DNA of 64,000 nucleotides, taken from the NCBI GenBank assembly GCA_020850325.1, contig JADZEW010000010.1, positions 5,759-69,758 of the forward strand, in the 5' to 3' direction. How positions within the stretch are numbered: position 1 is the first letter of the stretch; each line of letters starts with the position of its first letter. A model generated the notes under the pieces. It was not told the DNA's origin. It did no database searches and saw only the letters and a list, made by a program, of their open reading frames with translations. A program made the translations under genes and the position numbers. Source of the stretch: Methanoregulaceae archaeon (GTDB lineage Bacteria; Armatimonadota; Fimbriimonadia; Fimbriimonadales; Fimbriimonadaceae). Below are positions 8,641 to 11,587 of this stretch, in pieces.

Positions 8641-8871
8641 GTGAACGCTCCTGTTGTTGCCGCTTCCAAGACAAAGGCCATTCTCGTGATGCTGTCGGGG
8701 CTGCTCTACGGCGCATCTCCGATCGATCTGATTCCGGACATCGTTCCACTCCTCGGATGGTCCGACGATGCGGTTGTGCTGCTAACGGCGGGCGTCATCG
8801 CGTTTCGGTTGCTTCGGCGGCAACGTCAGGCGATGAAAGCCCGCACCAGCGCCGGCACACTGCCGTCGTAG
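8641..8871 (+). CDS. DUF1232 (YkvA-like) small membrane protein
   Basis: C-terminal part of ORF 8353..8871 carries LLYGASPIDLIPDIVPLLGWSDDAVVL, the DUF1232 signature. The upstream part is antisense to rpmH/rnpA. Start uncertain (GTG 8641 or ATG 8689). Confidence 0.65.
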   Translation: MNAPVVAASKTKAILVMLSGLLYGASPIDLIPDIVPLLGWSDDAVVLLTAGVIAFRLLRRQRQAMKARTSAGTLPS

Positions 8872-9806
8872 CCGATCACGTGCAGGATGTCCGGGGATTC
8901 GATCTCGCCAAAGAGTGCGCGCGGACCTAGCCCAACTACGACCAACCGGCAGGACTTCTTCAGAAGATGCTCCGGGCTGGAACGGGCATTCCATGTATCC
9001 GCGTCGGTGATCATGATGATCGCATCGAAAATCCCCTCCTGCGCGAACGGAACCGAATGATCCACCCAGCCGCCATTCGAGGGCAGTTCGGTTACGGGTG
9101 CGGATAAGGGAAATGATCGATCGGAAAAACCGATGAGGGTCGCTTGAGTCAAGCCCGCCAGCGCGTTGGCTAACTCGGTCGCGACCGCCGCGTGAGCTCC
9201 GTGCATCGACGTTGACGCGTCGATCGCGATCAACGTGCTTCGTTCAGTCGGTTCCAGCCGCTCGGGTTCAGTTGGCTTCACTTTTTCCTCGACGGATGGC
9301 GCATGGCCCTCCCCCGTTGTGATCCACTGGAACAGCTGTTCGTGCTCCGGCGATGGAGCGGCGGGATGAGCCAGTCGCAACAAGTCTCGATGCGACCAGC
9401 CGGCCATTTCGGGGCAAGTGACAATCTCGCGCGACAGTTCATCGACGCTGCGCACGGTGTACCAGCGGCCCACCGCCGTGCGGAGCCCGCGACCCCAACC
9501 TCGCAGCCCGCGACAGGCATCGCAAAAGGCGAACAACTCGGCAGACGTGCTTAGAAACGATGGCATCGCAGCGAGCGCATCGCGGCGGGTTGGGGCGTCG
9601 CCCAACGAAGCCGCCATCGCCAGAGCATAGGCCTGGGCGGACTTCCGACCCTCGCCGAGGATCATCGTCACCGCGTCGGGACCGAGATCGCGGATCGCCG
9701 CCGCCGTGTGGATAGCATCTTCGGGGGCGTAGGTGAACTCGCCAGTTCGGCAGAGGGTCCCTTCCGTGCCGAGCGCGAGGAATCTTTGGAATCGCGTGAT
9801 CTCCAT
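8826..9806 (-). CDS. short Ro60-like protein (TROVE N-terminal half plus small vWA domain)
   Basis: RFQRFLALGTEG, GWGRGLRTAVGRWY and GWSHRDLLRLAHP align with the Ro60 motifs RFLCFGSEGGTYY, WGRALRKAIADWY and GWSHKDLLRLSH (recalled from memory). C-terminal vWA with MIDAS DASTS. ATG 9806 preferred over the track's TTG 9839. Confidence 0.8.
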   Translation of the reverse strand: MEITRFQRFLALGTEGTLCRTGEFTYAPEDAIHTAAAIRDLGPDAVTMILGEGRKSAQAYALAMAASLGDAPTRRDALAAMPSFLSTSAELFAFCDACRGLRGWGRGLRTAVGRWYTVRSVDELSREIVTCPEMAGWSHRDLLRLAHPAAPSPEHEQLFQWITTGEGHAPSVEEKVKPTEPERLEPTERSTLIAIDASTSMHGAHAAVATELANALAGLTQATLIGFSDRSFPLSAPVTELPSNGGWVDHSVPFAQEGIFDAIIMITDADTWNARSSPEHLLKKSCRLVVVGLGPRALFGEIESPDILHVIGYDGSVPALVRAFIA

Positions 9807-10363
9807 GAGCGGATGGCAGAAGCAAAGAGGGTCCGCCAAGGCTAGGCAAGGTCTCGGCCTTCCGGCGTTTTCATCTGTTGCCCTGAGTAACCAGATGATA
9901 GCGCGTTCACAGCGTTCGGCCCCACCTCGGCGGACCGGGGAAGGTGTTAGACAGCTCTGTCTACGACGGGGAGTGGCGCATCCTCAAAACGCGGGACGCG
10001 ACGACGGGTCAAAGGAGAAGCGAACTTCTCAACGACGATCTTTCAAGTGGGGCGCCATGACGGCGCAAAGAGCGACGTCGGGCCCTAGAGGACGGGCTTC
10101 ATGTTCGCTGAGATAGTAGCCCATCGGCGCGGTGAATGTCAACCGATGGGTCCTTGGTCCGGGTTGCTCAGAACTTGGGGATCCCCAAGTCGGCGTTGTG
10201 ATGGATGACACGCGCCCAAAGTCGTAGCGACGGGATGATACGTGCCCGTCGGCGAACTATTACTGGACTGGACCAGCGGCACGTATCATCCGCTGGCTAC
10301 GAGAGCTTCAGGCGATGTGCATTTCGGCTACCACCACGGCTCGAGCGGCCACTTCCTCACGCG
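9807..10363. other. ~550-nt non-coding, densely structured intergenic region upstream of the Ro-like gene
   Basis: No credible ORF. At least 10 perfect stems: 9871-77/9892-98, 9948-54/9957-63, 10015-20/10025-30, 10052-56/10062-66, 10094-98/10118-22, 10120-27/10143-50, 18-nt palindrome 10173-10190, 10228-34/10245-51, 14-bp stem 10233-46/10278-91, and 10273-79/10290-96. Confidence 0.7.
10152..10277 (+). ncRNA. candidate Y-RNA-like ncRNA (closing helix UUGGUCCGG / CUGGACCAG)
   Basis: A 9-bp helix (10154-10162 with 10268-10276, 2 G-U pairs on the + strand) encloses two hairpins. The 5' arm UGGUCCG matches the conserved Y RNA 5' core. Adjacent to the TROVE gene. Strand and ends are unverified. 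Confidence 0.25.
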
Positions 10364-11587
10364 TCACCACTTTGGGAGAGGCTTGCCCACCGACAGATAC
10401 TCAAAGCGCCGCTCGCTTGAAGCCACGACGTTCCCCGCGCGGTCCAGATTCTCGGTCGTCAACGAGTGGATGAGATGGGTGTCGCGGCGGATGATCGCGG
10501 TAATGCGTATTCCCGACGAGCGCAACTCCAGAATCGAGCCGCGCATCTTGCCGACGGTGATCTCTCCGCGCACCCGAGCCTGCAGGTCGGGCTTCCACAT
10601 TGTCGAGAGCGGGTTGCGCCCCTGCAGCCAGCGATGGAGCATCGGCTCGATCTCCAGTCCTTGCTGGGCGAGCGCGGTCTCCACCTCGCGGAGCTTGGCC
10701 TTGCGGGACTGCGGCGCCGAGCCCCGCTTGGTGTATCGCAGCGTGCCGCCCGACCACTTCCACTCGCCACGCGCATTGATCTGCCGCGCCGCGCCATCGT
10801 TCAGCCAAACCTGAGTCACTCCCGAGCTGTCGGTGACTCGGTAGTTCGCGTAGCGCAGCCGACCGTGGGCGGCAAACGTCGCATTCAGCAAGTTGCTTGT
10901 GGCCGAATCGGTGGCCTTCGGATACGGCGGCGACTCGTAGAACTCGCTGACGCGACGGTAGTTGGACGGTACCGCGAACGACCCCGGCGAAGAGCTCCAC
11001 TTTGAGTACGTCCATCGCAATCCCGCTGCGCCGCTGCGGATCGCCACGGCAGCCAGCCGGCCGGTGGACTTGGAGAAGGTGATCTCGAACCGACCGGTTG
11101 GGGTGGTAGCGATCGCCTGACGGTTATCGCCGCGCTCGGTGATCTTCCAACCCCGTAGCTCACGCAGCGGACTGAGGAAGAGATCAAGCCCGACCGAGTC
11201 GGCAGCGATGCGGATGGGCTCGTCGAGCGCGATCGCTGACTGGAATCGCTCGGTCAAGGTGCCCTTGGCGACCACCTTGCGCTGCAGCATCTGGTGCGTA
11301 AGGTGATCGATGCCGTAAAGGGTGCCCCCGTTGAGAACGAACGACTGATCGACCGGGCCGGACTTTGCAGTCGGCACCATGCGCGCTCGATACCGCAGCC
11401 GATCCGAGCGGCGATAGCCCACTTCATAGGTGCCGCTGCGGTTTTGCTCGGTGCCGGTGGAACTGAAGGCGACCGAAAACGCTCCCGAGGTCGCTCGCTT
11501 GTGAACGGCCAGGCACCGATCCGCAAGTTGGTCGAAGGTGACCGCCGGAGCGGCAACCATAAGGATTCCCAAAGAGAGCATGGTCAT
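10364..11587 (-). CDS. secreted protein with two LolA-like (lipoprotein-carrier-fold-like) halves, coupled to ABC importer
   Basis: Signal peptide MTMLSLGILMVAAPA. Both halves show a LolA-like sequence pattern (pattern-level inference). ATG overlaps the permease stop (ATGA at 11584-11587). Confidence 0.6.
   Translation of the reverse strand: MTMLSLGILMVAAPAVTFDQLADRCLAVHKRATSGAFSVAFSSTGTEQNRSGTYEVGYRRSDRLRYRARMVPTAKSGPVDQSFVLNGGTLYGIDHLTHQMLQRKVVAKGTLTERFQSAIALDEPIRIAADSVGLDLFLSPLRELRGWKITERGDNRQAIATTPTGRFEITFSKSTGRLAAVAIRSGAAGLRWTYSKWSSSPGSFAVPSNYRRVSEFYESPPYPKATDSATSNLLNATFAAHGRLRYANYRVTDSSGVTQVWLNDGAARQINARGEWKWSGGTLRYTKRGSAPQSRKAKLREVETALAQQGLEIEPMLHRWLQGRNPLSTMWKPDLQARVRGEITVGKMRGSILELRSSGIRITAIIRRDTHLIHSLTTENLDRAGNVVASSERRFEYLSVGKPLPKW

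Follow-up and report, generated by a model that had tools for sequence, protein, structure and literature searches.

A gene in the 64,000-nucleotide (nt) stretch of contig JADZEW010000010.1 (assembly GCA_020850325.1) analysed here, the whole of which we call the window and whose host is a Fimbriimonadaceae bacterium, encodes a 326-amino-acid (aa) protein, named mini-Ro below, and the locus is probably that of a maintained, miniaturised relative of Ro60/Rsr that acts in a ring-less ribonucleoprotein (RNP) with its own Y-like RNA. It combines a gene of reduced architecture that is under selection, a co-inherited structured RNA with the canonical Ro-binding motif, and an association with a DUF1232 gene. 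Ro60 is a long-studied autoantigen and RNA-surveillance protein on whose outer surface Y RNA docks and through whose cavity misfolded RNA threads; because both activities reside on one rigid ring, docking and threading are hard to separate experimentally. The mini-Ro family would be a naturally selected separation-of-function form, in which the docking platform and a dedicated Y-like RNA are strongly constrained and half of the ring is gone. The literature searched contains no description of a short or ring-less bacterial TROVE protein, and none of a function for DUF1232.

An earlier note on this DNA, made from the sequence alone, had proposed a half-size Ro60 orthologue with TROVE and vWA parts. 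The half-size TROVE-vWA protein is genuine: the open frame at 8826..9839 on the minus strand gives 337 aa counted from a TTG, and the ATG at 9806, which is the start common to all close relatives, gives the approximately 326 aa (MEITRFQRF...) that had been reported. The motifs quoted at the time, RFQRFLALGTEG, GWGRGLRTAVGRWY, GWSHRDLLRLAHP and DASTS, are all present, as is the linker rich in E, P and K. In the following list of the parts of the gene, pLDDT stands for the predicted local distance difference test and omega for the ratio of nonsynonymous to synonymous substitution rates (dN/dS).

8826..9806, minus strand: mini-Ro coding sequence, 326 aa, with the stop codon at 8826-8828; the longest open frame reaches the TTG at 9839, and the ATG start is common to the relatives P0002-P0004.
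9312..9806, minus strand: N-terminal TROVE/HEAT part (aa 1-165, ten helices), corresponding approximately to Ro60 22-210 by PDB alignment and carrying the Y-RNA platform.
9366..9368, minus strand: codon of His147, the equivalent of Ro60 His187 (the His of LLRLSH, counted in the PDB alignment), an invariant residue.
9240..9311, minus strand: E/P/K-rich linker (aa ~166-189) in place of the ~150-aa second half of the HEAT ring, with pLDDT 77-91 and omega 0.5-0.7.
8829..9239, minus strand: reduced vWA-like α/β domain (aa 190-326), recognised from a sub-cut-off Pfam vWA_Ro60 match, the 2nvo alignment, AlphaFold2 and Foldseek, with omega 0.12-0.24.
9207..9221, minus strand: DASTS, the D-x-S-x-S remnant of a MIDAS (metal ion-dependent adhesion site) whose Thr is replaced.

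A search of the PDB matched the protein to Xenopus laevis Ro60 (1yvp, E=3.3e-16; query 6-181 aligned with Ro60 22-210, and 195-245 with 364-422) and to Deinococcus radiodurans Rsr (2nvo, E=1.1e-14; query 266-335 aligned with 451-529), and the homology of mini-Ro to Ro60/Rsr is, as judged from such alignments, far above chance. The TROVE signature motifs and the residues invariant across the family are retained. The complete TROVE domain, a full HEAT-repeat ring of about 350 aa, is absent: in profile searches the Pfam TROVE model matched at positions 127-192 of 442 only, and the NCBIfam Rsr model at positions 31-208 of 531 only, with 74 bits against a cut-off of 900 (E=7.5e-21). The Pfam vWA_Ro60 match fell below its cut-off. 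In one source the close relative P0002 is entered as "hypothetical protein"; none of the other short forms has been given a name.

The missing part is well delimited when segment sizes are compared with those of 69 full-length relatives. From helix 10 to the first vWA strand mini-Ro has 28 aa against a median of 154, the vWA part has 134 aa against a median of 174 (some 40 aa less), and about 37 N-terminal residues and a 6-residue loop are absent; the net loss of about 126 residues amounts to the second half of the ring. The earlier note's statements that this half is replaced by a short linker and that the vWA domain is short are both borne out by these lengths. A C-terminal vWA fold is nevertheless recognisable in the shortened domain, from the alignment to 2nvo 451-529, the α/β domain of the structure model and vWA matches in Foldseek. 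AlphaFold2, run with an 82-sequence alignment, gave a confident monomer (pLDDT 94.2; predicted template modelling score, pTM, 0.90) consisting of ten helices (residues 3-164, mostly with pLDDT above 90), the linker and a small α/β domain, and a 264-aa member of the family also folds confidently (pLDDT 89, pTM 0.86). The query-normalised Foldseek template modelling (TM) scores of the mini-Ro model are 0.80 to D. radiodurans Rsr (2nvo) and 0.79 to human apo Ro60 (9nen); at such values both domains must superpose together, so that the modelled protein looks like a sector of the Ro doughnut, comprising the N-terminal repeats and the vWA domain that normally closes the ring.

With the half-ring residues absent and only 28 aa in their place, the monomer would lack a closed toroid with a central cavity, and we infer, in agreement with the earlier note, that a mini-Ro monomer cannot form the toroid that threads the 3' ends of misfolded RNAs. 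A homodimer, which the earlier note had suggested, or pairing with another protein could rebuild a closed ring that still threads such ends as canonical Ro does. The phage Ro60-Yrl2 complexes can dimerise (PMC12135203) and the vWA-like domain of mini-Ro is kept under selection, both of which speak for a rebuilt ring; the monomer model is, however, compact and confident, the phage dimer contacts α16 and α18 fall in the deleted half (PMC12135203), and the vWA domain is progressively lost in sister subclades with 264-aa and 163-aa forms, in which the N-terminal domain and the RNA persist. We regard a rebuilt ring as improbable.

R102, R106, R109, R140, R144 and H147, the residues of the RNA platform, do not vary in any of 82 sequences, of which 13 are short and 69 full-length, and H147 aligns with the Y-RNA-binding His187 of Ro60. 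The H187S mutation of Ro60 abolishes Y RNA binding (PMC11277228), and in the phage Ro60-Yrl2 complex a Y-like stem docks beside α8 and α10, with binding residues 137-193 (PMC12135203), a region that lies within the half retained by mini-Ro; the Ro60 contact map used here was taken from secondary sources. The MIDAS has fared differently. Its five residues (D, S, S, T, D) are invariant in 69 of 69 full-length proteins, whereas no short form keeps the Thr, the last Asp is found only in P0001-P0004 (the subclade of the window protein), and three short members lack the motif altogether. The "intact MIDAS start" of the earlier note is literally there as D-x-S-x-S, but the site is incomplete, the window protein having D, S, S and the last D, with Val for Thr. 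Within the genus the forms make a graded series, from 326 aa through about 260 aa with most of the vWA domain gone (G003) to 163-176 aa with the N-terminal domain only (G004). By these comparisons, the Y-RNA platform is kept while half of the ring is gone and the MIDAS is eroding.

The second element that carries the interpretation is a structured RNA of about 290 nt directly 5' of the short open reading frame (ORF), between the promoter and the start codon. Its parts are as follows, MFE standing for minimum free energy.

10113..10142, minus strand: sigma-70-type promoter from a promoter scan, with TTGACA at 10142-10137, an 18-nt spacer and TACTAT at 10118-10113.
10008..10106, minus strand: 5' module of the RNA, four helices, conserved across subclades.
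9941..10007, minus strand: variable middle hairpins (alignment A3, MFE folds).
9827..9940, minus strand: Y-RNA-like 3' module (covariance model R1), closed by a long stem and containing an internal loop and the CAUCYG/CRGAUG hairpin.
9913..9923, minus strand: GGGGCCGAACG, the invariant 5' strand containing the bacterial Y-RNA motif GNCGAAN0-1G (13 copies).
9842..9850, minus strand: CUUGCCUAG, the conserved 3' strand pairing with GGGC(C)GA to give a bulged helix in which the G-U, G-C, G-C and C-G pairs are invariant.

The sequence GCCGAACG at 9920-9913 is invariant in 13 copies and equals the published motif GNCGAAN0-1G. The core formed by the two strands can pair as G-U, G-C, G-C and C-G, a bulged C, then G-U and A-U, and it matches the GGUCCGA bulged helix of animal Y RNAs; with GGGC-C-GAA paired to UUGCC, it has the form of the canonical Ro/Rsr recognition site. 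The 5' strand of that helix and a critical ninth nucleotide have been described for animal Y RNA (PMC11277228); GNCGAAN0-1G sits near the 5' end of bacterial Y RNAs, with a proposed role in Rsr recognition (Chen et al. 2014, PMC4201824), and the CGAA motif is required for binding by phage Ro60 (PMC12135203). Over the 13 distinct copies of the 3' module, pairing holds in 94.6% of cells and compensatory changes occur in 16 of 29 pairs, compared with 27-51% of cells and 2-8 pairs in a slid-partner control; a weak phylum match (L113) was left out of the count, which is unchanged by it. The four-helix layout of the 5' module was recovered by MFE folding in 8 of 10 copies, including that of G004 with its different helix sequences.

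The RNA is about 97% identical between genomes whose gene DNA is 79% identical (dS ~0.7), it can be aligned across all short-form subclades, and the -35 and -10 boxes occupy the same place in all short loci, with a varying spacer sequence. Each short gene examined has a same-strand match to model R1 directly upstream, and the model finds none in the 47 full-length rsr loci scanned or in any other genome among 151 of the family and 401 of the phylum. Taken together, the alignments indicate that the upstream RNA is an unannotated RNA family with good covariation support. It resembles bacterial Y RNAs in having a long covarying stem with GNCGAAN0-1G at its 5' side and in lying directly upstream of a Ro-type gene on the same strand in all short loci. 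In related lineages, for the most part Armatimonadota, Y RNAs bearing GGGCCGAAG...CUUGCCC followed by YUAY lie just upstream of full-length rsr genes; the enrichment of this signature on the coding strand is 15-fold, and a plain T-arm is present in some of these RNAs. Since full-length relatives carry Y RNAs with the same stem upstream, the layout of gene and RNA was inherited, and the short-form RNA differs from those Y RNAs in its other internal module and its extra 5' module.

Several observations on these RNAs deserve mention in their own right. Unannotated Y RNA candidates with the closing stem GGGCCGAAG...CUUGCCC lie just upstream of full-length rsr in Armatimonadota (L019:5706-5850, L054:5555-5700, L086, L035, L045, L047 and L062), and another lies just downstream of it (L093:7589-7665); the candidates of L019 and L054 have a tRNA-like T-arm, and L027, L054 and L085 have several tandem copies. 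A five-codon mini-ORF at 10085-10102 on the minus strand (AUG AAG CCC GUC CUC UAG, MKPVL*) begins 3-5 nt after the predicted transcription start; its AUG and stop persist in every subclade whereas the codons between them vary (MKPIA*, MKPLA*, MKSPA*), G004 having an 8-codon version, and the mini-ORF could encode a leaderless leader peptide or be no more than a piece of the RNA hairpin H1. Short tandem-like repeats flank the module in other subclades: those of the GATTT/CAGATTT type occur between RNA and ORF in the 264-aa type (L114:1753-1820, L110, L115), and runs of GGATGTG-type heptamers upstream of the promoter in the P0005 type (L095:5700-5760, L104:2650-2720). Some candidates were rejected: a local hairpin proposed by RNAalifold in the middle of the 5' module was dropped in favour of the long-range helix GACGUCG/CGUCGUY, G004 keeping the latter and breaking the former; a Y-like helix at 10154-10276 on the plus strand lies in a segment that the closest relatives do not have and that consists of a dispersed short repeat; and L112, from a metagenome pattern scan, and L113 were treated as false positives, both being in apparently coding regions with no TROVE gene near.

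The position of the RNA invites another explanation, that it is a cis-regulatory leader and nothing else, with mini-Ro or some other factor binding the stem and autoregulating translation or termination, and no stable trans-acting Y-like RNA. The 3' module ends about 20 nt before the ATG (13 nt in the P0005 subclade), no Shine-Dalgarno sequence is obvious before that ATG, RNA and ORF share a single promoter, and the closing stem is often followed by a U-rich tract (window 9811-9830 on the minus strand and other loci, for instance AUUUUUG in L098 and CUUUUC in L095) that could be a leaky terminator or attenuator. On the other hand, some 290 nt with at least seven conserved helices far exceed the needs of an operator, and the Y RNAs of Mycobacterium smegmatis are likewise encoded upstream of rsr, being cut from one precursor (PMC4201824). 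A leader with no other role is in our view unlikely, and regulation in cis can in part be compatible with a ring-less mini-Ro RNP.

The short form is maintained under selection. A large protein collection contains at least 13 short relatives of 245-342 aa, with identities from 100% down to 40%, and all other matches are 500-570 aa long; an exhaustive profile search of 1.84 billion representatives gave four high-scoring short clusters, then a drop from 343 to 192 bits to ordinary TROVE proteins, with 2,881 matches in all. A tree built from the N-terminal domain groups 14 of 15 short forms in one clade on a long stem branch, with a Shimodaira-Hasegawa-like approximate likelihood ratio test value (SH-aLRT) of 99. 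The clade branches from within the full-length proteins, and the full-length genes found in the same genus are not its sister group, so that "orthologue" in the earlier note is a loose term. The same note had asked whether short TROVE proteins form a clade, which they do, and whether a full-length rsr exists beside them: no second or full-length rsr/TROVE gene was found in the host's 98%-complete genome, and among same-genus genomes four have the short form, three the full-length gene and none both. Values of dN/dS are 0.07-0.15 for the N-terminal domain, 0.12-0.24 for the vWA-like domain and 0.5-0.7 for the linker, on which selection is relaxed. Members of the P0005 subclade are 47% identical in mini-Ro and 94-96% identical in pheS, which places them in the same narrow lineage and marks the module as taxonomically restricted and fast-diverging.

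These data bear directly on the possibility that what we see is a normal rsr in decay, or one from which the assembly has dropped a piece in frame. In its favour, the isolated proteins P0194 and P0155 do resemble a canonical Rsr with a recent internal deletion, and the G004 copy is without the whole vWA domain. The short gene itself has the same length in many independent assemblies (JGI, ENA, Logan and NCBI), it belongs to a clade as deep as 40% identity in which length is conserved, omega is 0.07-0.24 over both domains, no frame is broken, and conservation extends to the promoter and the RNA; the decay or artefact that the earlier note had allowed for is thereby contradicted, and we consider it hardly credible. 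The smallest form, that of G004 (163-176 aa, N-terminal TROVE only; L009:1390-1920 on the plus strand, and L111), is still preceded by the promoter and by both RNA modules, whose helices show compensatory changes, and has neither vWA nor DUF1232, a cupin-like ORF following instead.

P0156 (L124:1064-2323), P0239 (L125), P0130, P0194 and P0155 are other TROVE proteins without the second ring half, and they seem to be of independent origin. The vWA of P0156 (419 aa) is full and has DxSxS, the APKNDPA loop persists in P0239 (343 aa), and L124 has a 520-nt upstream gap with GGGUCGAAAG...CCCUUGCCCC that gives no match to covariance model R1.

Convergent to mini-Ro lies the conserved third partner mentioned at the outset, a gene for a DUF1232 membrane protein.

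8641..8871, plus strand: convergent DUF1232 gene (~76 aa), whose 3' end overlaps the mini-Ro 3' end by about 46 nt.

Its product belongs to Pfam DUF1232 (PF06803; E=5e-11, 42.6 bits against a gathering cut-off of 23), and the motif DLIPDxxPLLGWSDD adjoins 14 of 17 short-locus records as opposed to 1 of 86 full-length loci. The module might be thought to be mainly membrane-linked or conflict-related through this partner, with RNA binding by TROVE secondary. The specificity of the partner for the short form fits that idea, as do the restriction to one narrow lineage, the fast divergence (47% against 94-96% for pheS) and the varied genomic contexts. Yet the defence-system libraries of PADLOC gave no match, conservation is highest in the RNA platform and in the RNA itself, and G004 keeps the RNA and the N-terminal domain without DUF1232, all of which makes a primary role of this kind very improbable.

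The other neighbours vary. The rpmH-rnpA-yidD-yidC-jag cluster adjoins the short gene only in the window's subclade; in other subclades the gene lies beside a UvrA-like gene and citrate synthase, or beside an aminotransferase, and a same-genus "empty site" comparison found rearranged flanks. The rnpA/rpmH neighbourhood to which the earlier note had drawn attention is therefore real in the window but not conserved elsewhere, synteny being lost even within the genus; the adjacency is probably incidental, and a functional link to rnpA/rpmH was rejected on these grounds. Upstream, a segment of about 200 nt (window 10150-10363) between the promoter and a 407-aa gene is absent from the closest relatives L098 and L015 and partly shared with L102; pieces of it, including the palindrome CTTGGGGATCCCCAAG, recur at 13 other places in the same genome, and it thus looks like an inserted short dispersed repeat. 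The 407-aa gene itself (window 10364-11587, minus strand) has no Pfam match; its identity is 65% with the G003 copy and only 27-33% with those in other genomes of the genus, so that it looks like another fast-diverging gene.

How would a ring-less Ro particle work? On the reading we favour, mini-Ro would bind the Y-like stem through its retained platform (R102, R106, R109, R140, R144 and H147), and the role of the protein would be reduced to holding, stabilising or presenting the RNA, the other RNA modules being the effector. As the putative binding site ends about 20 nt before the start codon, often with a U-rich tract after it, binding there would probably also feed back on translation of mini-Ro or on read-through. 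A number of points weigh against this reading. The RNA element stands just before the ORF and could be purely cis-acting; it has no Y RNA match in Rfam at the gathering score or at E≤10, and no tRNA-like element of the kind formed by the T and D arms of YrlA was found by ARAGORN or in Rfam at E≤10, the internal hairpin of the 3' module having a 12-14 nt loop without a T-loop consensus. The alignment used for covariation had been fitted to the model, the pairing of the recognition core can draw no support from covariation since that core never varies, and the MFE z-score of the whole RNA is only -1.15. The inter-domain geometry of the AlphaFold2 model may have been inherited from full-length homologues in the alignment, the G004 copy is a single sequence on a long branch that is possibly decaying, and the link to DUF1232 comes without an explanation.

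A bolder proposal, which we offer tentatively and which may well prove wrong, is that mini-Ro, DUF1232 and the ~290-nt leader RNA make up an accessory RNP module, self-contained and diverging fast, in which the ancestral Y-RNA docking surface of Ro has been naturally separated from the threading ring, the RNA acting as effector (a new class of Y RNA whose effector domain is not tRNA-like and which has an additional 5' domain) and the protein as its dedicated chaperone and autoregulator. Loss of the ring half appears, from P0156 and P0239, to have happened more than once, and such repetition would make a "ring-less Ro" a recurrent functional state and not an accident. Confined to one narrow Fimbriimonadaceae group, mini-Ro offers a naturally occurring "minimal Ro particle" with which to ask what purpose the ring serves: with a protein of 326 aa and an RNA module of 113 nt, it is a small, tractable system for studying Y RNA binding alone and what the ring and the MIDAS add to it. 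New here are an unannotated RNA family and a specific, unexplained link to DUF1232; the current Pfam, NCBIfam and Rfam models miss both the mini-Ro protein and its RNA.

Among known systems, the leaders of ribosomal-protein genes provide an analogy only: there a structured mimic of the protein's RNA ligand stands in its own 5' leader beside the start codon, whereas the mini-Ro RNA has no homology to such leaders and its regulatory role is putative. The bacterial Y RNAs (YrlA/YrlB and the D. radiodurans Yrn1/Yrn2; PMC4201824) are closer. Like them, the mini-Ro RNA has a module of about 113 nt with a long closing stem, GNCGAAN0-1G on its 5' strand and then YUAY, is encoded upstream of a Ro gene on the same strand, and apparently lies within a longer precursor; unlike them, it has no tRNA-like T/D arm and no match to a curated Rfam Y RNA model, its 3' module forms part of a ~290-nt RNA that also has a conserved 5' module of four helices, and it stands immediately before the start codon and only with the short protein. 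From Ro60/Rsr themselves (2NVO, 1YVP, 9NEN), mini-Ro differs in the net absence of about 126 residues, together with about 37 N-terminal residues, a 6-residue loop and about 40 vWA residues, in its incomplete MIDAS, in the closed cavity that its monomer cannot form, and in scoring 74 bits where the equivalog cut-off is 900; it shares with them the homologous RGWGRGLR...WY and GWSHRDLLRLxHP motifs, the invariant basic platform with the His187 equivalent, a packing of N-terminal HEAT helices against a C-terminal fold of the vWA type whose relative arrangement is the same as theirs (TM 0.8), and a Y-type RNA encoded just upstream. The Ro60 of Thermus phage phiLo (PMC12135203) is full-size (502 aa), with a closed doughnut and a Ca2+-binding MIDAS, which mini-Ro is not; like mini-Ro, it is a divergent Ro homologue with Y-like RNAs of its own, Yrl1 and Yrl2, which have a stem-bulge-stem form and dock, in a CGAA-dependent manner, on α8 and α10 of the N-terminal half.

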